Of a stretch of 64,000 nucleotides of DNA, positions 715 to 51,392 are shown in pieces. The notes below the pieces were generated by a model. The model ran no database searches. It worked only from the letters and a program-made list of their open reading frames with translations, and was not told where the DNA came from. Origin of the DNA: a virus; the IMG/VR virus record IMGVR_UViG_3300045988_154761, positions 96,001 through 160,000 of that record; one strand, written 5' to 3'. Numbering within the stretch: the stretch's first letter is position 1; each line of letters begins with the position of its first letter. The position numbers were made by a program, and so were the translations under genes.

Positions 715-1540
715 CTAAATCCTTGAAAGAAAAAGTATAACAAGGACTTTCTTTTAAAAACACAGCAATGACCCGCCACCTTGTTTGTATAAGGGGAAAC
801 CTGTGAGTTATAGTTAAAAGGTCTATAACATTTATATCCCCATTAGTGTAATGGAGCATTCTCGTTAACTGATGTTGAGTAAACACTAAGGTAGCTCTTT
901 AGCGATAACAGCCACATTGGGAGAGGAAGTTGGTTCGAATCCAATTATAGGGTCCAGTAACTACGATACCGTCTTATAAAGATGGAAGTTCGCCTAACAG
1001 ATGGAGTATCGCTTAATGTTAGGATGTGTATATGGCGCAACTAAGTTCAGACCGTCCAGAACCTACAACCATATTAGCGGTGACAGCTTGGAGAGACAGC
1101 AAATATGCGGCAACTGGTGTAATAATAAAAGTAGCCATGGACAATATTTTTATTATGTTTGGAGTTCGATTCTTCTCTGCCGCTCCAAAAGACAGAATGG
1201 TTAGATATTTCTTGATGTCTTTTCAAAAAACAAGAAATCCGTAAGATATAGTACGAAACTTATCTTGGAATACAGTTTAGCTGGTTACAATGTATTCGAC
1301 ACTAAACCGCCCTCCAAGTCTGATGGACTGGTAACAATAGAAAGACCGCTGTTTACTCAATCGGGTGCGTTAAGCCCTTATACAATAAACAAGACTGATG
1401 ATGAAAATGACCAAGATAATTGGGTGCAAGTTTGCTGAAATATTTCTGTAGACCTCTCCCTAATCGAACCGAGGGCAGATAAGTGGAAAGCTGGTCTGTC
1501 AGTAATCATTAGTTCTTGTTTTATGTACCTTTAATAAGAA
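715..1540 (+). other. ORF-free, GC-elevated, hairpin-rich block (unclassified structured RNA candidates)
   Basis: only short spurious ORFs; many 6-7 bp hairpins (CCGTCTT/AAGATGG, CCTAACA/TGTTAGG, GAATACA/TGTATTC); an orphan tRNA-like D arm (~845) and T arm plus CCA (921-957) that I could not join into a tRNA. Confidence 0.3.
1088..1188 (+). ncRNA. ACAGCAA closing-helix element, divergent copy E12
   Basis: TTGGA (1088-1092) pairs with TCCAA (1184-1188); ACAGCAA at 1096-1102; second helix GCGGC (1107-1111)/GCCGC (1179-1183). Confidence 0.4.
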
Positions 1541-3102: not shown

Positions 3103-3236
3103 GTAGAGACTAACAGCAATTTTGAAAATATGTTAAAAAGCCAAACTCCCATTCTTCGGTTCGAATCCGAACGTCTTCAGTTGAAGTATGTAGCCAAGTG
3201 GTTTAAGGCAGGAGTCCATAACAACAATGTCTCTAG
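3103..3236 (+). ncRNA. ACAGCAA closing-helix element, copy E3 (tRNA-mimic core)
   Basis: TAGAGAC (3104-3110) pairs with GTCTCTA (3229-3235); ACAGCAA 3113-3119; core T arm TTCGG-TTCGAAT-CCGAA and D-arm-like GCC-AAGTGGTTTAA-GGC. Confidence 0.6.
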
Positions 3237-3243
3237 TATTTAT

Positions 3244-3386
3244 GCTCGTGTAACTCAGTTGGCAGAGTAGCGGCCTTGATGGAGTAGTATAAGAAATATG
3301 TCCTGTAAAGGAAGATGTGAGTTCAAATCTCATTTTCATCACAATTAAGCCGTTTGTCGAGAGTTCGAATCTCTCCACGGGCACCA
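3244..3386 (+). tRNA. tRNA gene with a 67 nt insertion in the anticodon loop (identity unresolved; Lys, Thr or other)
   Basis: acceptor GCTCGTG/CACGGGC, D arm ACTC-AGTTGGCA-GAGT, anticodon stem GCGGC (3270-3274)/GCCGT (3349-3353) separated by 74 nt, T arm GAGAG-TTCGAAT-CTCTC, CCA. Confidence 0.6.
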
Positions 3387-6450: not shown

Positions 6451-6545
6451 GCTAGCGTACAGAAGTGGTCATAACTGCCATCACTTGAAATGATGTGTGA
6501 CGGCTTGTATCCGTCTCGTGAGTTCGAATCTTACCGCTAGTGCCA
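6451..6545 (+). tRNA. tRNA-Ser(TGA)
   Basis: acceptor GCTAGCG/CGCTAGT, anticodon arm CATCA-CTTGAAA-TGATG, long variable arm, T arm GTGAG-TTCGAAT-CTTAC, G73, CCA. Confidence 0.85.
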
Positions 6546-8260: not shown

Positions 8261-9232
8261 ATGGATATTTTAATTGATTAGTACACAAAAGAAGAGTTAT
8301 AGCAAATTTTAAATAATAGTTCTTCTTATTCTGACGCTTTAAGAAAATTAGGATATAATTCTACATCAAACGCTAATCGTCGGCATTTAAAGAGAATTAT
8401 AAAAGAAAAAAACTTAGAAGTTAATTTTCTTCCAAAGACATACATAAAGAAATTATCTGATGAAGAAATTTTCAAAGAAGATTCTCATGTTAGTTAGAGT
8501 TGTGTGCGAGAACATTTTTTAGCTTTAAATATAGTTGAGTATAAATGTTCTATATGTGGATAGGAACCGTTTTGGAATGGAAAACCTTTAACTTTAACAT
8601 TAGACCACATTAATGGTAAAAACCGAGATAACAGACTTGATAATTTAAGGTGGGTTTGTCCTAATTGCGATAGATAGCTTCCTATTTTTGGGCGGAAAAA
8701 TAAAACAGAGTTAAAAAAGAAGAAGTTAAAAAAATTTGATTTGGTAAAAAACAACAAACCAAAATCTTACAAAAAATATTTTAAAATTTACAAAGATAAC
8801 AAAAGATTTTGTTTGGGTTGTGGAAAAGAAATTACCAATAATTCTCTATATTGTTTTGATTGTGCTAATAAGCATAGAAGAAAACAAAAAGATAGACCAA
8901 CCAAAGAAGAGTTAGAAAAAATGTTAAAAGAAGAAAAGGGTAATTTTTCAAAAATAGCTAACCAATTTGGTATTTCTGATAATGCAGTTAGAAAATGGTG
9001 TAATAATTATGGTTTATCCTGTAAATCATCTGCTTATAAAGCACCAAAAAAAGAAAAACAACAACGAATTGAGAAACCTGTAAAGCAATTAGATTTAAAT
9101 GGTAATTTAATTAAAAGCTATTCTTCTATTAATCAAGCTTATGTTGAAACTAAAATAGAGCATATTTCTCAATGTGCGAACGGGTTAAGGAAAACAGCTC
9201 GGGGTTATAATTGGGAATTTGAAAAAGATTAA
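8261..9232 (+). CDS. HNH homing endonuclease with C-terminal HTH/NUMOD-like modules; 5 in-frame TAG
   Basis: ATG after AAGGAGA; frame checked end to end (TAG only); LDHINGKNRDNRLDNLRWVCPNCDR-TAG-LP; the track ORF 8741-9232 is its 3' part. Confidence 0.8.
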
Positions 9233-9584: not shown

Positions 9585-9671
9585 GTAGACACTAACAGCA
9601 ATTAAAATAAAAATACTGGGAAATATATTTAATTGGAATAAATACTTTTTTAGATTTTTAAAGTGTCTAGG
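9585..9671 (+). ncRNA. ACAGCAA closing-helix element, copy E9 (short form)
   Basis: TAGACAC (9586-9592) pairs with GTGTCTA (9663-9669); ACAGCAA 9595-9601. Confidence 0.6.
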
Positions 9672-9680
9672 ATTTTATAT

Positions 9681-9816
9681 GGGGATGTATCTCAATTGGT
9701 CAGAGGGCCCGACTTATGTTTTAGTAGTTTAAAAGTAAAACTTTTAATGCAAGTGCAAGACTTGTCTAAAACACCAAATCGGGAAGTTGAGTGTTCGAGC
9801 CACTCCATTCCCACCA
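9681..9816 (+). tRNA. tRNA gene with a 59 nt insertion in the anticodon loop (Ile-UAU if excised at 37/38)
   Basis: acceptor GGGGATG/CATTCCC, D arm TCTC-AATTGGTCA-GAGG, anticodon stem CCCGA (9708-9712)/TCGGG (9779-9783) separated by 66 nt starting CTTATG, T arm GAGTG-TTCGAGC-CACTC, CCA. Confidence 0.65.
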
Positions 9817-9837
9817 ACGGTAGCAAATTCAAATAAA

Positions 9838-9907
9838 GTAGACTCTTACAGCAATTACTTAGAGACTTGTGATTTGGGATTACATATGTTTTGAAAAATG
9901 AGTCTAG
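9838..9907 (+). ncRNA. ACAGCAA closing-helix element, copy E10 (short form)
   Basis: TAGACTC (9839-9845) pairs with GAGTCTA (9900-9906); ACAGCAA 9848-9854. Confidence 0.6.
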
Positions 9908-9915
9908 CTTTATTA

Positions 9916-9992
9916 GCGCCTGTAGTCTAATTGGATAAAACCGCACTCTTCTAAAGTGTATCTTATGAGTTCGAATCTCGTCAGGCGTGCCA
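9916..9992 (+). tRNA. tRNA-Arg(TCT)
   Basis: acceptor GCGCCTG/CAGGCGT, anticodon arm GCACT-CTTCTAA-AGTGT, T arm ATGAG-TTCGAAT-CTCGT, CCA. Confidence 0.8.
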
Positions 9993-10018
9993 ATGAAGTT
10001 TCAAACTTCATTTAATTT
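9993..10018 (+). terminator. intrinsic terminator-like hairpin
   Basis: ATGAAGTT-TCA-AACTTCAT followed by a T-rich tract. Confidence 0.55.
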
Positions 10019-10022
10019 ATTA

Positions 10023-10333
10023 TTGCGGAGTAGTGTAACGGTTAGCACAGCGGTCTTGAATTAGGGACTCCTATTTGGAAACGAATAGGTAATAAAGAGG
10101 GCTAAAACGGTTGACATCTTATTATTAAGTTAGTAAGACTATCCCGTGCTAAATCAGTTCAAAAAACTGTAAATGTGTAGAGAGCATAGACTCTCCACCT
10201 AAACCGAAAGGCAAGGTGATAATGTGCTCCAGACTACAACGATTTTTATCGGCTATGGTGACATAGAGTAGCAAGCTAAAACCGTACCATTCTGAGTGGG
10301 TTAGATTGAGTTCGAATCTCAACTCCGCTGCCA
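10023..10333 (+). tRNA. split tRNA gene interrupted by a 220 nt group I-like intron; predicted spliced anticodon CTA (amber suppressor), alternative TGA
   Basis: 5' part TGCGGAG-TA-GTGT-AACGGTTA-GCAC-A-GCGGT-CT (10023-10055); 3' part CTAAA-ACCGT, 20 nt variable region, TTGAG-TTCGAAT-CTCAA-CTCCGCT-G-CCA (10276-10333). Confidence 0.55.
10056..10275 (+). ncRNA. group I-like intron candidate inside the split tRNA
   Basis: 5' exon ends in U, intron ends in G; P1 GGTCT (10051-10055) with GGACT (10064-10068) including the U:G pair; P10 TTAG (10060-10063) with CTAA (10276-10279); P2 CCTATT/AATAGG; R-like TCCAGACTACAA (10228-10239); GAAA-capped hairpin; the P3/P7 core was not resolved. Confidence 0.45.
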
Positions 10334-10438
10334 ATTTAAAAGTAAAGGGAACATTGGAGTAATTAACCAATGAGATAATGATACCTTCGCTGTCAAGCTT
10401 TACTTTTTTTAAATAAATCTGTGAAGGAGATTTTGTTT

Positions 10439-11410
10439 ATGCAAGGAAGTATTTATATTATTCATAATTCAATAAACGATAAAAAGTATATTGGATAGAC
10501 TTCAAGAACAGTTGAAATTCGTTGGAAAGAGCATTTACAAGAAGCTCAAAATTTAGATTGCCATTATGCAATTTATAATGCTATAAGAAAATATGGGGTT
10601 GAAAATTTTTGGGTAGAAGAAATAGAAAAATGTGAAACGAAAGATTTAGATGAAAGAGAAAAATATTGGATAAAATATTATAATTCTTTTAAAAAAGGTT
10701 ATAATTCAACTCTTCGGGGAACCACAAATTTCAATTGTTTTTATAATAAATTAACTTTTGAAAATTCAAACTGTGTTTTTGATTCAATAGAGAATTTTTC
10801 AAGAATATATAGTTAGTATCATAATATATCATTGAGTCAAGTAAAAGACAAAATATTAAGAGCAATAAATAATGATAAAACTTTTTATGGTAAAAAGCCT
10901 GTAATTTTAAATTGGGATGTAGATGTATCTTCAGATAAAGACAAAGAAAAATTTGTTAAATAGTTTGAAGATATATATTAGAATAAAAGTGTAAGATGTA
11001 TTGAACTTAAAAAAAATTTTAATACTGTTGGGCAAGCGGCAAAGTATTTTGTTGAAAAAGAAATATATACTGGAAAATCTAGTAATCCTCTTCAAGCTGT
11101 TACAGTTTTAATTACTAAATCAATAAAAGACAATAAAGCTTGTAAATCTTTGAATAATTATCACTTTAAATATACATAGAAAAATAAAAAGATATTAAAC
11201 AAATCCTCTTTAAATCCTTATCAAAAAGTTCCAGTAAAATGTAATGAATTGAATTTAGTTTTTAATTCATAGGTTGAAGCTGCTTAGTATATGATAGATA
11301 ACAAATTGTGGGATGTTAGTTTAAAAACTGCACGATTAAGAATAACTGACTTAGTAAATAATAAGATAGAAAAATATAAAGGTTATTCTTTTTGTAAAAT
11401 ACAAACTTAA
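10439..11410 (+). CDS. GIY-YIG homing endonuclease with repeated NUMOD/IENR-like DNA-binding modules; 7 in-frame TAG
   Basis: ATG after GAAGGAGA; all 323 codons checked, TAG is the only interruption; GSIYIIHNSINDKKYIG-TAG-TSRTVEIRWKEH, KYWIKYYNS. Confidence 0.85.
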
Positions 11411-22872: not shown

Positions 22873-23343
22873 ATGGTTGATATTAAGTGGCTTTAGACTC
22901 AAGAAGGATAGAAAGCTTATTAGACTTGGATAAGAAAGTTAGCAAATCGAGCAGAAGATAGAACAGATATTCCAATTTTAGTAGACACCAATGGAGAAAT
23001 TTAGGTTTGGGTAACAATAAATAAAAAATATCTATCTAAAGAGCAATTTGAAAAACTTTCTGACAAATCTGATGGTGAAATTACTACAAAATTAGAATTT
23101 AAAACAAAAGATATTATTATAAGAGAGCTTACTTCTATTGCAAAAAGTAGAGATGCTTTAGCGGATAATGAAGATGAAAGAGAACTTTTATGTCCCCTCG
23201 TTTCATTGTTTCAGGGAATAGAAGATGCTATTACTAATGATATTTGCTATAAAGCTCAAAATGCTAAACAGCTTTTTATAAACAATTTCGAAAAAAATTT
23301 AGGAAAAGACGAAAATAATTCTAATAACCTCTTGACAAACTAA
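22873..23343 (+). CDS. hypothetical protein (156 aa), 4 in-frame TAG
   Basis: frame checked line by line; TAG at codons 8, 13, 17 and 44; TAA stop at 23341-23343. Confidence 0.55.
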
Positions 23344-23378: not shown

Positions 23379-23440
23379 TTAGACTCTCACAGCAAACTAC
23401 AAAAAACTTTTATTTTGAAAAAAGGACAAAAAGAGTCTAG
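23379..23440 (+). ncRNA. ACAGCAA closing-helix element, copy E11, in the 5' leader of the vWA protein gene
   Basis: TAGACTCT (23380-23387) pairs with AGAGTCTA (23432-23439); ACAGCAA 23389-23395. Confidence 0.6.
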
Positions 23441-23462
23441 TCCTTTAGAAAAGGAGAAAATT

Positions 23463-25181
23463 ATGTATAACTACAACAATCCTAACAAGAAGAATAACAC
23501 TAAGGCTTGGGCTCCTAAGCCTGAAAAGCCTGTTACTAAGTCCAACCGAGTTAGCCGTAAGGCTTCTTTCATGGACAAGGTTGAGAATACTGCTAAGGGT
23601 TACTACACTCAGATTGCAGTTCCTTCTCTTCCTGCTGATAAGCAGTACACTTCTAACGGTGCTATTGCATACAAGTCCTCTGGTTCTGCTCTTCTTGACA
23701 TCAACACTTCCATCTCTGCTCTTCGTAGCCTGCCCGATGGTGATATTGTGAAGAAGTTCCGTGCAGCTTATTGTGAGAATCCTCGTCTCGCTATTCGTTG
23801 GCTGTTCTATGCTGGCGATATCCGTGAGGGTCAGGGTGAGCGCCGTCTCTTCCAGATTTGCCTTAAGGATATGATGAACAATGGTGGTGCTCAGATTGTG
23901 GCGAACCTGATTCCTATGATTCCTGAGTATTCTCGTTGGGATTATATCTATGTTGTCATGGATAATCCTACTACTAAGCCTGTTGTTCGTGAACTGATTC
24001 GTAAGCAGTGGAAGGAAGATATGGCTAATATGAAGAAGGGCAAGTCCATTAGCCTTATGGCGAAGTGGCTTGATAGTGCTTCTTCTCACAGCCATGATAC
24101 TCGTAAGCGTGGTCTTAAGACTATGGATATGCTCGGTCTGACTGAGCGTGAGTATCGCAAGGGTCTGTCTGCTCTTCGTAAGCACCTTGACGTTGTTGAG
24201 CGTAAGATGTCTTCTCAGAATTGGCAGAGCATTGATTATGAGACTGTTCCCTCTAAGGCAAACCTTAATTACAATAAGGCTTTCCTTCGTAATGATGAGG
24301 AGCGCCGTCGTGCCTATCTGAACGCTCTTACTAAGGGCGAGGCAAAGATTAATTCTTCTGTATCTAATCCTTGTGACATTGTTCACAAGTATTGCGAGAA
24401 TGATTGGGGTACTTCTCCTCATTCTTATGATGCCGCCCTTGAAGGCATGTGGAAGGCTCTTCCCAATCTTGTAACCGATGATAGTTCCACTATTGTTGTT
24501 GCCGATGGCTCTGGTTCTATGTGCGCTACTGTTGGTCGTACTCGTATGACTGCTCTTGAGGTTGCTAACTCTCTTGCAATTTACTTTGCAGAGCGTGCTA
24601 AGGGTGCATATAAGGGTCGTTACATTACTTTCTCTGCACGTCCTCAGATGGTTAATGTTAATCATGACTCTTTGCGTGCAAATCTTAGGGAAGCTGCTCG
24701 TCATAGTGAGATTGCTAATACCAACCTTGAAGCAGTATTTGACCTGATTCTTGATACTGCAATTAAGAATCATTCTCCTCAGAGTGATTTGCCAAAGAAT
24801 ATTCTGATTATCAGTGATGGTGGTTGGGATTCTATGGTAAATATTCGTACTCTTAATACTGGCAGTGGTTATGGTTATTGGGGCTATAACAGCACTCGTG
24901 CTACTGCTAAGGAAGCTCCTGCTTTCCTTAAGTCCATTGAGCAGAAGTACAAGAACGCTGGATATGAGATGAGCAAAATTTGTTATTGGAATGTTTGCGG
25001 AAACGGTACTACTGGTAACGGTCTTCCCATGACTAAGAATGATTATGGTATCATGGTCAGCGGGTTTAGTATCCAAACTTTGAAAATGATTCTCAGCGGC
25101 AAGACTAATCCTTGGGATGCACTTATGGAAGTGGTTTTGGATAAGCGTTACGACAAGATTGAAGAGCTAGCTTTTAAGTAA
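23463..25181 (+). CDS. DUF2828-like protein: helical N-terminal region plus C-terminal vWA domain with MIDAS
   Basis: ATG 23463 after AAGGAGA; NGAIAYKSSGSALLD, RLAIRWLFYAGDIREGQGERRLF, VVADGSGSM (DxSxS). Confidence 0.7.
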   Translation: MYNYNNPNKKNNTKAWAPKPEKPVTKSNRVSRKASFMDKVENTAKGYYTQIAVPSLPADKQYTSNGAIAYKSSGSALLDINTSISALRSLPDGDIVKKFRAAYCENPRLAIRWLFYAGDIREGQGERRLFQICLKDMMNNGGAQIVANLIPMIPEYSRWDYIYVVMDNPTTKPVVRELIRKQWKEDMANMKKGKSISLMAKWLDSASSHSHDTRKRGLKTMDMLGLTEREYRKGLSALRKHLDVVERKMSSQNWQSIDYETVPSKANLNYNKAFLRNDEERRRAYLNALTKGEAKINSSVSNPCDIVHKYCENDWGTSPHSYDAALEGMWKALPNLVTDDSSTIVVADGSGSMCATVGRTRMTALEVANSLAIYFAERAKGAYKGRYITFSARPQMVNVNHDSLRANLREAARHSEIANTNLEAVFDLILDTAIKNHSPQSDLPKNILIISDGGWDSMVNIRTLNTGSGYGYWGYNSTRATAKEAPAFLKSIEQKYKNAGYEMSKICYWNVCGNGTTGNGLPMTKNDYGIMVSGFSIQTLKMILSGKTNPWDALMEVVLDKRYDKIEELAFK

Positions 25182-25196
25182 GTTTTAAATATGAAA

Positions 25197-25230
25197 GGGG
25201 AAGAGAATTATTCTCTTCTCCTTTTTATTT
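25197..25230 (+). terminator. intrinsic terminator
   Basis: GAAGAG/CTCTTC stem followed by CTTTTTATTT. Confidence 0.6.
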
Positions 25231-25244
25231 ATAAAGGAGATATA

Positions 25245-26477
25245 ATGTCTTAGTATATTAGTTAGGTTTCATCTTTAATGGAACAATGGGATTTTGATAA
25301 AAATACTGTTTAGCCTAATGAAATAACAACAGGAGCGCATCAAAAAGTATTTTGGAAATGTCCTGTTTGCAAAGGTAAATGGAGTAATATTCCCCATACA
25401 GCAGGAAAAAATAGTTGCCCATATTGTAATAAAAGAAAAGTTTTAAAAGGTTTTAATGATTTAAAAACTAAAAATCCAGAATTACTTTGTGATTGGGATT
25501 ATTCTTTAAATCAAATTTTACCAGAAGAAGTTACTTTTTATTCAAATAAGAAAGTTTTTTGGAGATGTCACAAATGCGGATATTCATGGGAAGCAACTAT
25601 TAATAGTAGGACAAGACTTCATGCAGGATGCCCAAATTGTGCAAAAGGACATAAAACGAGTTTTCCCGAACAAGCAATATTTTTTTATTTAAGTAAACAT
25701 TTCTTTTGTATTAACAATTATAAATATGATAATACAAAAAAAGAAATAGATATATATATTCCATCTTTGCGTATCGGAATAGAATATAATGGAAGTTATT
25801 ATCATTCAAAATCTTAGACTAAGGATGAGAAAAAGAAAAAAGATTTGCAAAATTTAGATATTTAGTTAATTACAATAAAAAATAGCAAAGAGGACAAAAA
25901 CAACAACAATCTTATAGAACATAAATTAAATGATTCTTCTTTAGAATGGGCCATAAAACAACTTTTAAAAAATTTATATCTGGAAGATAATATTTCTTTA
26001 AACAAAGATTATCAAGATATTTTAAAATAGTATAAACAAAAAGAATATCAAAATTCTTTGGGAGAATTATATCCAAATTTATTAGAAGAATGGGATTATG
26101 ATAAAAATGTTTTAAATCCTTTATTAATATCTCCAAATTCTAACAAAAAAGCTTGGTGGAAATGTAAAAAATGCGGACGCAGTTGGCAAGCTGCTATTAA
26201 TAGTAGAACCCCTCCTCGTAGTAATGGTTGTAAAAAATGCGTGGGAGTTTATGAAAAAGCTGTTCTTTGTTTAGAAAACAGAAAAATTTATATCGGACTT
26301 AACAAACTTTGTAAAAAGTTAAACGTTTCAAGTGGAGCAATAACAACTTGCATAAAAAGAAGTAAAAACAAAATCGGACATTGTAAAGGATATCATTGGA
26401 AAATATATATTTTACATAAAGAGAAAAATTTTTCTTGGCCTTTCTCTGATGAGTTAACTTACGAAAGAGAGGGGTAA
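25245..26477 (+). CDS. homing-endonuclease-like protein: repeated treble-clef zinc ribbons flanking a nuclease-like core; 6 in-frame TAG
   Basis: ATG after AAGGAGA; frame checked; three W(D/E)xDKN...W.C..C...W......R.....C..C modules; EIDIYIPSLRIGIEYNGSYYH core; the track ORF 26058-26477 is its 3' part. Confidence 0.65.
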
Positions 26478-49005: not shown

Positions 49006-49034
49006 TTGACACCTTGACTTTTATGTGTTATACT
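49006..49034 (+). promoter_or_regulatory. sigma70/sigmaA-like promoter
   Basis: TTGACA 49006-49011 (a second TTGACT at 49014), 17 nt, TGT-TATACT (49029-49034). Confidence 0.65.
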
Positions 49035-49075
49035 ATATATGGGTTAATAGACTATTAAAGAAAGGAGATATTATT

Positions 49076-50041
49076 TTGAAAGAATTTCAAGAATTTAAAG
49101 ATTTAGAATAGTTTTATTTAAAAGCACAAGAGATATTTAAAGATAGAAAAAGAGTGGATAGTTACAAAGAAATGTGTAAGCTTTTAGATGAACCTTGTTA
49201 TGCTTCACCTTCTTGTAAAGAACGTCAAAAAATACAATTTACCACTTGGAAAAAATGTTTTACATGGCGCAAATCAAAATAGAAGTTTATTAATATTAAA
49301 ATGATTCCGAAAGAAATTTTTGACGAAAATCTTTAGGAACTTAAGATTAAACGAGAAGAAAAATCAAAAGCGCAATCTGAAAAAACTCTTCAAAATTATA
49401 TTAAGAATTATAAACTTAATCATTTATTAACTGGAAGATGGCCTTCTCGTCCCTGCTCTTGGGATAAGAGAGGTGTATATATAGTTTATAATAAATCTAA
49501 CAAAAATTCTTACAAAGGTCCTGTTTGTTATATTGGTAGTACTGCTGTTGCTTTTTATAAAAGATTTAATAACCATTTACATCCTTCTCAAACCATGTCT
49601 CAAGAAATAAGAGATTTAATGGAAGAGAAAGATACTCATATTAACTTTTTGTGGTTCGCTCCTGATGATGCAACAGAAGATGAAATACATGAGGAAGAAG
49701 CCGAGTTCTGGTCTATATATCAGAAAAAAGGATATCATATGCTTAATAAGCATATTCCTCAATATCATAGAACTTTAAAAAATCCTAATAAAAAGAAAAT
49801 TGCTCCCCATGGTTCTTATTTAACAGATAAAGACTGGGTTCAATATAAAAAGATTAGTGCGAAAATTCCTTCTGACAAGATTCCACTTTTAATTAAATTC
49901 TTACAAAAAGATTTGAAATTAGAATTTTCAGAAGATTTTAATATGTGGACTGAACCTGACATGATTCCCAAAATACAAAAGTTTGTAGAAGAAAATAAAA
50001 AGAAAGTAGAAATACGAGAGGTTGATAAAGATGACGAATAA
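49076..50041 (+). CDS. GIY-YIG-domain endonuclease-like protein with an N-terminal domain shared with the next gene; TTG start, 3 in-frame TAG
   Basis: TTG 8 nt after AAAGGAGA; frame checked; GVYIVYNKSN...VCYIGSTAVAFYKRFNNHL...EAEFWSIYQKKGYHMLN. Confidence 0.65.
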
Positions 50042-51392
50042 TTAGCTTTATAAAAAATGCCAATAGAAATTAAAGAATGTTACAGAGGTAGAATCTTATA
50101 AAGCTATGTGTGCTTTATTAAATGAAGAATACTTCAAGTACAAGAAAAGTAAAGATAGATAGCTTGAAGTTTGGAAAACCTGTTTTAGCTATGATTTACT
50201 TAAAAGTGGTAAGTTTATTAATATTAGACTTCTTTCGGAATCAGAACATTTCCAGACCCTTACGGAACTGTTTAAAACAGATTCCATTTCTTACTCCCTT
50301 TGTGGCTTGCTTAACCAATATAGTGATGAAACAAATGAAAGTATTGTTTATATAACTAAATCTGAACTTGCTTTTTGTTTAGGATTTTTTAATGAATCTT
50401 ATAGCACAGTAAAAAAATATCCTGAAGTGTATTCTTATCAAGTTGAAAATGATATTTTAGCCCTTAGAAATAGTCGATATCCGTTTATTAAAGAACATAA
50501 AGATTCTATTAAAGGTTGGAGAAAAGTAAAAGAAAATTCTTCTAAACCATCTAATGACACTCTTCAAAAAGTAGAAGATTTTACTATCCATTATTCATCT
50601 AATTATGAATATAAAGTTGAAAATGCCTTAAAGAATCTTGCTGATAGTGGTTATATTACTTTACATGAAGTCTATATGGGTGCTTTTGTTGATGATAACT
50701 TTAACTGGATTCCTAATATAGACAATATTTCAAATAAAGATGGCAGATATTATTTTAAAAGTGATGAAACAACTACTTTGGTTATTCCATATAAAGATAG
50801 AGAGCTTACACCAGAAGAAGAAGTTAAATATATTCAAATTACCAATGAAATTTTCAGACAAATGAATCTTGATGGAATTCAAGATGTTTTTAAACAAAAT
50901 AAACAACTTAAATTTAGACAACAATTATTTCCTCAATTACTTTCTAATATGGGATGCTTATATATTTATAAAGCATATCGTATTGGATTTTCTTCTGAAC
51001 ATATTGGAGACAAAGAAACAAAAGTAAAAACTAAATTACAATCTACTTTTGATATAGCTTCTTTAAAGAAAGCATTAGCAGATAATAATAGTACAGCTAC
51101 TAAAGCCAATCTTAAAAATGCTCAAAAACGTATTGAAGATAATATTTCTTCTAAGCATACTTTAGGTAATACTTTATCTGAAAGTCAAAAATTAGAACAA
51201 GAATATTCTACTTTTATATTAAAAAAGTTATCAAAAGAATTACTTAATATAGATGTTGATTCCTATTTTCCATCCACTTCTGATTCTTCTAACGCAATTC
51301 AATTTATTAATTCAAAGAAAAAAGCTATTTTTAACAATAGTTTACGACGTTTAAATAATAAAAGATAGTATGATGAAAAAGCTCAAAAATAA
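50031..51392 (+). CDS. hypothetical protein (453 aa) sharing a ~60-aa N-terminal domain with 49076; 4 TAG read as sense
   Basis: ATG 50031 overlaps the upstream gene by 11 nt; TAG at 50043, 50064, 50160 and 51366; first TAA at 51390-51392. Confidence 0.55.

Follow-up and report, generated by a model that had tools for sequence, protein, structure and literature searches.

Group I introns of subgroup IC3 are known from the anticodon loops of bacterial and plastid tRNAs, including cyanobacterial and plastid tRNA-Leu(UAA), tRNA-fMet, Azoarcus tRNA-Ile and Agrobacterium tRNA-Arg (PMC3984707). The phage group I introns known at the time of a 2014 review all resided in protein-coding genes, despite the many tRNA genes that phages carry (PMC3984707). 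Suppressor tRNAs are likewise known from recoded phages, and have been described adjoining theta ribozymes in a study in which introns are not mentioned (Kienbeck et al., PMC10879173). The present analysis concerns a tRNA gene at 10024-10333 on the plus strand of a 64,000-nt stretch of DNA from a human-gut phage (the window; positions 96,001 to 160,000 of IMG/VR record IMGVR_UViG_3300045988_154761). This is very probably an amber-suppressor tRNA(CUA) gene split between U33 and C34 by a compact group I intron that lacks an open reading frame (ORF), the spliced product of which would read TAG. A phage tRNA gene that contains a group I intron appears to be new, as does the interruption of the code-changing tRNA itself; a full-text literature search of incomplete coverage, such that priority is not certain, returned no report of introns in phage tRNA genes.

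The split tRNA(CUA) gene and its junction

When introns are allowed, ARAGORN calls the gene as tRNA(cta) with a 219-nt intron and the junction GGUCU/.../CUAAA. The 5′ exon (10024-10056; all features of the gene and its intron are on the plus strand) consists of U1, the acceptor 5′ strand GCGGAG, U8 and A9, the D arm GUGU-AACGGUUA-GCAC, A26, the anticodon stem 5′ strand GCGGU, and C32 and U33, the last of these being its 3′-terminal base. The 3′ exon (10276-10333) begins with C34 U35 A36 A37 A38 (CUAAA) and continues with the anticodon stem 3′ strand ACCGU, a 20-nt variable region that includes a 5-bp stem (CCAUU/AGUGG) followed by six unpaired bases, the T arm UUGAG-UUCGAAU-CUCAA, the acceptor 3′ strand CUCCGCU, in which U72 is mismatched with U1 (U1·U72), G73, and an encoded CCA (10331-10333). 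Between them lies the ORF-less intron (10057-10275; 219 nt), which terminates in the omega-G, G10275, and the identification of which is based on covariation, homology to the intron of locus L006 and a minimum free energy (MFE) z-score. A preliminary description of the locus had recognized a tRNA gene split by an insert, and both halves are present in the sequence; its coordinates for the 5′ part (10023-10055) were one base low, and the insert is one nucleotide shorter than the 220 nt that it gave.

With default settings ARAGORN detects 13 tRNAs in the window, none of which has the anticodon CUA or lies at 10024-10333, and the split gene is not called by the Rfam tRNA model either; standard tRNA finders miss it because the intron divides the gene. 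The in-silico spliced product, a 91-mer with a 7-nt anticodon loop, is called as tRNA(cta) by ARAGORN. The junction can be read directly from contig L003, found in a pattern scan of IMG/VR, which carries in the same flanking DNA an intron-less allele of the tRNA type represented by L002, with ...GCACGGCGGUCU running straight into CUAAAACCGUACC.... The anticodon arm of this allele is GCGGU-CUCUAAA-ACCGU, that is, GCGGUCU joined to CUAAAACCGU, and the intron-less tRNA (3202-3289) scores 55.3 bits with the Rfam tRNA model. Because the loop of L003 reads CUCUAAA, the junction CU/CUAAA and the anticodon CUA are fixed without recourse to any splicing rule. Nor can the intron boundary slide, since the intron starts with U and the 3′ exon with C, while the 5′ exon ends in U and the intron in G. 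The interruption is located between U33 and C34 and the spliced anticodon is CUA, as had been predicted. The predicted spliced RNA contains the junction GCACAGCGGTCTCTAAAACCGTACC, and the unspliced precursor the junctions GCGGTCTTGAATTAGG and GTAGCAAGCTAAAACC.

At least 14 further contigs carry the same split gene. L001 is a close relative of the window in IMG/VR, 93-98% identical over the aligned segments, and L002 is a diverged relative. A metagenome scan with a 22-mer from the 3′ exon recovered 11 contigs, all 11 containing the intron, six of them of the window type and five of the L002 type; among them are one contig with the label human gut and another with the label viral metagenome. The samples behind L027-L037 include ORPK01000016, OOMW01000010 and ERZ1026882. 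Seven contigs are close relatives of the window copy, two being identical over the gene and five differing by one to three substitutions. None of these falls in an exon, and every change lies in a loop or preserves a pair (C10144>U in L032, which retains a G·U pair in paired region P4, and A10166>G in L001, which retains a U·G pair in P6a). The window and L002 types differ by compensatory changes in the acceptor stem (GCGGAG/CUCCGC versus GGGGGU/ACCCCC) and in the T stem, with U1·U72, G73, the anticodon arm and P1/P10 unchanged. Since the changes that separate the two types are compensatory, both the tRNA and the ribozyme fold are under selection.

Fold and relatives of the intron

The last base of the 5′ exon, U10056, forms a U·G wobble with G10065 inside the 5-bp P1 (10052-10069), in which GGUCU (10052-10056) pairs with the guide GGACU (10065-10069) around a loop at 10057-10064. 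This stretch is identical in window-type and L002-type contigs save for 10058 G>A, in the loop. Directly 5′ of the P1 guide, UUAG (10061-10064) pairs with CUAA (10276-10279) to form P10, which is kept in all window-type and L002-type copies and, being invariant in the relatives, has no countable covariation. The last base of the intron is G10275, and a terminal G is also found in all window-type, L002-type, Leu-type, L006, L056 and cr115_1 copies. The exon-final U and insert-final G noticed in the preliminary description are thus in place, and the guide that it described does give both P1 and P10, at positions one base higher than it had stated.

The P1-P10 structure was drawn from the window copy and scored on a MAFFT alignment (A2) of nine intron-bearing tRNAs, in which 87.0% of cells are paired compared with 29-42% after a shift of the 3′ partners by 1-3 columns. 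Changes on both sides of the pair are seen at 32 of the 66 pairs, and on four of the five measures none of 500 shuffles attains the values of the real alignment. MAFFT misaligns P1, P2 and P10 of the Leu-type introns, and these helices were judged on the window-type and L002-type copies only. The intron alone has an MFE z-score of -2.68. P2 is a hairpin (10070-10089; CCUAUUU-GGAAAC-GAAUAGG) that in L002 reads CCUUAAA-GGAAAC-UUUAAGG, four pairs being altered on both sides. P3, formed by 10097-10101 (GAGGG) with 10191-10195 (CUCUC), is 100% paired in the nine sequences, with four of its five pairs compensatory. P4 (10107-10111/10143-10147; 93% paired) encloses P5 (10118-10123/10132-10137; 100% paired) within 10107-10147, both showing compensatory changes, and is followed at 10148-10176 by a 2-bp P6 and by P6a (10155-10159/10165-10169), which is 97% paired with four of five pairs compensatory. 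P8 (10196-10200 with 10214-10218, a distal part of 10204-05 with 10210-11, and a GAAA loop) is 87% paired. The P9 domain (10232-10272) comprises a stem of G10232 and 10234-10237 with 10268-10272 (100% paired), P9a (10240-10243/10248-10251; 94%) and P9b (CUAUG-GUGA-CAUAG, 10253-10266; 100%), the latter two with compensatory changes; P5, P6a, P8, P9a and P9b all covary.

The catalytic core that the preliminary description had left untraced can now be drawn, P3 and P7 both being 100% paired across the nine introns. P7 is formed by 10182-10187 (GAGCAU) with 10224-10229 (GUGCUC), two of its pairs being compensatory, and its span (10180-10230) encloses J7/3, P3′ and P8. The helix may be closed by G10180:C10230 with A10181 bulged, and G10182:C10229, beside this bulge, is proposed as the guanosine-binding pair by analogy with the usual layout, the pair being invariant in the intron family. 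The L006 intron has GACUAU/AUAGUC at P7, with two pairs altered on both sides, and that of L056 has GAGUA/UACUC. An alternative P7, GACUAC/GUAGC (10233-38 with 10268-72), was rejected, as covariation and the Rfam-aligned L006 intron place this helix in P9. The group I fold is conserved and covarying, and the comparison supports the reading of the insert as a compact, ORF-less group I intron with a P3/P7 pseudoknot.

A conserved 17-mer of the intron (GTGCTCCAGACTACAAC) occurs at 22 IMG/VR loci, 12 of which, L001 and L002 included, carry related introns, nearly all with a tRNA 3′ half immediately after them. Most members of the family reside in tRNA(UAA) at U34/A35 (...CUU/AAAA...), the classic tRNA-Leu intron site. 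Family loci are L004 4190-4578, L006 c2206-2603, L007 c1564-2024, L009 c2919-3230, L013 9359-9676, L019 c6028-6483, L020 c727-1070, L021 c2080-2707 and L023 c2808-3375. The 3′-exon starts of L013 and L021 differ from those of the other loci, the L007 intron contains an HNH-like ORF, some of the tRNA hosts are class I and not Leu-like, and ARAGORN mislabels several of the genes as Stop, Phe or SeC. No second copy of the intron was found in the window. A blastn search with window positions 9600-10450 produced no match among 50,697 GenBank phage genomes. With a Leu-type relative as query it produced one weak match, the intron-split tRNA(CUA) of the crAss-like phage cr115_1 (NC_055898.1, about 30.3-30.6 kb; L059, locus 1054-1354). 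A group I intron some 230 nt long splits this unannotated gene at U35/A36, and the gene is situated just upstream of that for the large terminase. The P7′-P9 motif was matched 14 times in 185,579 species genomes, and these matches are counted as chance because none has the upstream P7 motif TAGAGAGCA; no bacterial home of the intron family was found among these genomes.

In the window the suppressor occupies a slot just 3′ of tRNA-Arg(UCU) (9916-9992), and the slot is syntenic in L052, L053 and L055-L058. Intron-less class-I tRNA(CUA) genes are found there in L052, L053, L055 and L058, and in L056 and L057 a related intron interrupts the tRNA(CUA) between U35 and A36. The locus is hypervariable, with unrelated tRNA(CUA) bodies, with or without an intron, the position of which varies. 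L052 and L057 have acceptor, D and T arms and flanks in common and differ in the anticodon stem beside the intron site, as expected from co-conversion during intron homing. Because relatives have alleles without the intron, the tRNA does not require it in order to function and a selfish element is the simplest reading; the intron is most readily viewed as a selfish, formerly mobile element that has become established in suppressor tRNA genes within this group of phages. A free-standing GIY-YIG homing-endonuclease gene (10439-11410, plus strand; Pfam GIY-YIG, E = 3.6e-10) begins 105 nt downstream of the tRNA. It occurs in the window, L001, L031 and L035 but is missing from L029, L030, L032 and L034, which are otherwise nearly identical. 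Its seven in-frame TAGs imply that its translation needs a TAG suppressor, the split tRNA being the sole one seen in the window, and it is conjectured that the endonuclease helps the mobility of the intron or of the locus.

Reading of TAG and competing explanations

TAG is a sense codon in this phage. Treating it as such raises the long-ORF coverage of the window from 41.7 to 50.7 kb, and among the 71 plus-strand ORFs of at least 100 amino acids, 56 end in TAA, 13 in TGA and two in TAG, both of which read on in frame, in keeping with the recoding that the preliminary description had taken as given. Six ORFs need between three and seven TAG read-throughs each. Those rich in in-frame TAGs encode an HNH/NUMOD protein (8261-9232), GIY-YIG proteins (10439-11410 and 49025-50041) and a DUF4379 zinc-finger protein (25191-26477), and there are two further in-frame-TAG ORFs to which no function was assigned (22873-23343 and 49983-51392). 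Pfam domains flank or span the TAGs in the HNH/NUMOD, GIY-YIG and DUF4379 ORFs. The in-frame TAGs are concentrated in homing-endonuclease-like ORFs and in the two ORFs without an assigned function, most other ORFs in the window having none.

The codon is probably read as glutamine, a suggestion drawn from sequence comparison. TAGs in the GIY-YIG protein at YIG-X-T and FNS-X-VEAA align with Gln in 6/7 and 3/3 informative, distant homologues, respectively, and the JGI protein P0006, which has no in-frame TAG (standard code) and is the sole homologue in which codons were checked, has CAG and CAA at the two Gln sites. A weak or absent 1:72 pair, G73 and U35 are identity features for glutaminyl-tRNA synthetase (GlnRS). 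The tRNA(CUA) of the window carries U1·U72, G73 and U35, together with a 20-nt variable region that is not Gln-like. In other phage tRNA(CUA) genes the anticodon arm is almost the same, the 1:72 pair is likewise mismatched and G73 is present.

It is proposed that the tRNA array is transcribed and that the intron then folds into P1-P10 with its P3/P7 pseudoknot. Free guanosine bound at P7 would attack after U10056, in the U·G pair of P1; the terminal G10275 would dock, and the freed 3′-OH of U33, guided by P10, would attack the bond between G10275 and C10276. Joining of the exons would leave a tRNA of 91 nt in which the anticodon loop is CUCUAAA. Host GlnRS would most likely charge it with glutamine (unpaired U1·U72, G73, U35), and the charged tRNA would read the in-frame TAGs of phage genes, in the window mainly those of homing-endonuclease genes. 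Splicing would be an obligatory step before TAG decoding from the split gene, and within the visible 64 kb of a genome of about 200 kb TAG decoding would depend on it. We infer catalysis by the intron itself (self-splicing), the inserted amino acid and any role in timing from the sequence features set out above.

Several observations weigh against this account. The Rfam group I intron model, RF00028, gives no match on the window intron at its gathering threshold (50 bits) or at E <= 10, the window copy has only four good pairs in P4, and the intron-less suppressors of L052, L053, L055 and L058 show that the intron has no necessary function. As regards glutamine, a 20-nt variable region combined with G73 is reminiscent of tRNA-Ser, the evidence consists of two conserved columns of a single protein, and where L001 and the window have exchanged TAG for another codon the counterparts are varied (CAA, AAG, AAA). 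The RF00028 search was part of the test by which the preliminary description was prepared to give up the intron. The covariance-model match is indeed missing, and the result is uninformative, since a genuine T4-type td intron, located with a 50-mer that matched 100% and used as a control, gives no match either. The model does score the L006 intron (196 nt), from another phage tRNA(CUA), at 58.2 bits against the threshold of 50, and gives 21.3 bits (E = 0.003), below threshold, on the RefSeq intron of cr115_1. The L006 and window introns align through J6/7 (GUGUAGA), P7, P3′, P8, J8/7, P7′ and P9 (GACUACAAC...), the main difference being compensatory changes in P7. These changes likely cost the window intron its score because the Rfam structure line leaves P7 unpaired. 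The silence of RF00028 is not counted against a group I intron, as the model also misses td yet scores the L006 homologue; the td control weakens, and does not remove, the missing match as an adverse point. On this evidence RF00028 overlooks a whole lineage of phage tRNA introns.

The gene could instead be a tRNA-Ser(UGA), or another sense tRNA, with an insert that begins after CUUGA and from which no suppressor is made, a junction that the preliminary description had kept as a caveat. Its 5′ side, GCGGU-CU-UGA-A, resembles the anticodon arm of tRNA-Ser(UGA), and the long variable region and G73 would fit such a tRNA. However, intron-less L003 reads CUCUAAA, the G10058 of the supposed UGA is A in L001 and L035 (giving UAA) at a position within the P1 loop, a junction after CUUGA has neither the U·G nor the terminal G at the splice sites, and a tRNA-Ser(UGA) is already encoded in the window at 6451-6545; the UGA junction is excluded by L003, L001 and L035, and a sense tRNA is extremely improbable. 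Removal of the insert by a protein endonuclease and a ligase, in place of group I self-splicing, is brought to mind by a second kind of anticodon-loop insert in the same phages that cannot be group I (see below), but is considered very unlikely given the sequence and structural hallmarks of group I, the homology to introns that RF00028 recognizes, and the lack in this intron of the 7-bp stem and NCCA signature of those small inserts. Somewhat less improbable, though still poorly favored, is a dead tRNA gene with a decayed intron, TAG being decoded by a tRNA outside the window or by another mechanism. RF00028 is silent on the intron, sister phages have intron-less suppressors, and the window covers some 64 kb of a genome with a probable length close to 200 kb (150-216 kb in related contigs). 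Decay is at odds with the seven close relatives, which have no exon changes and have intron changes only in loops or in a pair-keeping form, and with the compensatory differences between the window and L002 types in the acceptor, T arm, P2, P3, P5 and P6a, which are a signature of selection; furthermore, the array of 13 tRNA genes in the window contains no further tRNA(CUA).

The split gene might also be a functional suppressor that inserts serine or some other amino acid, and not glutamine. A long variable arm and G73 constitute the identity set of bacterial SerRS, which does not read the anticodon, and the tRNA has both G73 and a 20-nt variable region with the 5-bp stem CCAUU/AGUGG; a paralogous GIY-YIG protein in the window has Ser at YIG-S-T. 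Six unpaired bases after the variable stem are atypical for tRNA-Ser, and are counted against this possibility. The two conserved TAG columns align with Gln, not Ser, and correspond to CAG and CAA codons in P0006, so that TAG as serine is unsupported. The U1·U72 mismatch, G73 and the near-identical anticodon arm are common to class-I phage tRNA(CUA) genes, and published surveys report only TAG to Gln recoding in phages (bioRxiv 10.1101/2021.08.26.457843). Insertion of another amino acid is therefore judged unlikely, serine being retained as a minority rival because the variable region is not Gln-like.

The preferred reading, a spliced amber suppressor, adds an RNA-catalysed step to the code switch and offers a concrete explanation, open to checking, for the apparent absence of a suppressor tRNA from many TAG-recoded phage genomes, an example being the unannotated gene in NC_055898.1. 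A covariance model built from the intron family could be run on recoded phage genomes at once. A bolder and rather doubtful extension is that self-splicing gates the phage code switch, the timing or extent of recoding being set by ribozyme folding, the supply of guanosine nucleotide or a phage factor, and that split suppressors account for a sizeable share of the approximately 60% of TAG-recoded phage genomes without a known suppressor tRNA. If such gating were true, the homing endonucleases and any late genes that bear TAG would be translated only after the suppressor precursor has spliced.

Other interrupted tRNAs and comparison with known systems

A second, apparently undescribed kind of tRNA interruption is present in the same phages, consisting of anticodon-loop inserts of 50-122 nt that resemble a tRNA minihelix. 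They are located in the window at 9681-9816 (insert 9718-9776) and 3244-3386, and in L001, L003, L009, L027-L037 and L052-L058. The inserts are closed by a 7-bp stem, within which an inner hairpin is followed by a second hairpin that resembles a T arm and lies directly against the 3′ strand of this stem, and they end in N-CCA. Across the window and the retrieved loci, ARAGORN detects 40 different interrupted tRNAs, 25 of which have exactly one excision by the rule of a perfect 7-bp stem plus NCCA that leaves a normal tRNA, compared with a rough chance expectation of about 0.04 per tRNA. The insert follows loop position 32, 34, 35 or 36, and the anticodons after excision are Ile UAU, Gln UUG, Lys UUU, Leu CAA, Glu UUC, Thr UGU and Gly UCC. 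ARAGORN labels 9681-9816 as an opal suppressor, tRNA-SeC(tca), an assignment that was rejected, the insert rule giving the loop CUUAUAA of tRNA-Ile(UAU). The insert in 3244-3386 fails the strict rule, ending in ACAA and not in NCCA. The Rfam tRNA model matches some of the inserts themselves, such as that at 3278-3341 in the window (39.9 bits). One idea is that RNase P would cut on the 5′ side and a CCA-measuring enzyme on the 3′ side, after which an RNA ligase would seal the loop; no RNA ligase or repair gene was found among the 18 window ORFs scanned. No paper on such inserts was found in the literature search, and no insert-less allele of the 9681-9816 tRNA was found in IMG/VR.

In three phages, represented by the window (838-956), L002 (9467-9585) and L053 (c13339-13457), ARAGORN with introns allowed also reports a tRNA-Val(cac) that is interrupted at position 29/30 by a 46-nt intron. 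This interruption conforms to the pattern of neither the group I intron nor the minihelix inserts. The window encodes at 23415-25181 a Ro-like protein (PHROG 'RNA-binding protein'; DUF2828, DUF7788 and a weak VWA match). In the related phage L009 a ROOL RNA (RF03087, 341 bits; c3240-3847) adjoins an intron-bearing tRNA, and within a tRNA array of L056 there is a weak, Y-RNA-like match to YrlA (c7067-7165; 37 bits, below threshold).

Among known systems, the T4 introns td, nrdB and sunY (subgroup IA2) are, like the window intron, phage-borne group I introns, and share with it the P4′-P6 motif AUCCCGUGCUAAAU and a GUGA-capped P9 hairpin (td compared), but they interrupt protein-coding genes, carry endonuclease ORFs and have both P7.1 and P7.2, none of which applies to the window intron. 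A second comparison is with the introns of bacterial and plastid tRNAs. As in these, the window intron is compact (about 200-250 nt) and ORF-less, is located in the anticodon loop with the anticodon stem flanking the splice sites, and has the P1 U·G, the terminal G, P2 and a P9 domain without a P5abc extension, and its sister introns sit at U34/A35 of tRNA(UAA) as do the classic tRNA-Leu introns. The anticodon-loop site and the absence of P5abc, P7.1 and P7.2 from the model would be in keeping with subgroup IC3, and the J6/7-P7-P3′-P8 stretch (GUGUAGAGA...CCUAA) may resemble that of the Azoarcus and Anabaena introns. Unlike the bacterial and plastid introns, it resides in a phage tRNA gene, that of a stop-codon suppressor, it is RF00028-silent, and its P7 is GAGCAU/GUGCUC and not the usual GACUA/UAGUC. 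To our knowledge, no tRNA intron has previously been reported at U33/C34. The host tRNA resembles the suppressors of recoded gut phages (crAss-like, Lak and others) in being phage-encoded with the anticodon CUA, in its location in a tRNA array and in probably reading TAG as Gln (Borges et al., bioRxiv 10.1101/2021.08.26.457843; Kienbeck et al., PMC10879173), and as in those phages the in-frame TAGs cluster in a subset of genes that includes homing endonucleases. It differs from the known suppressors of recoded phages in that its gene is interrupted, and so is not called by standard tRNA finders.

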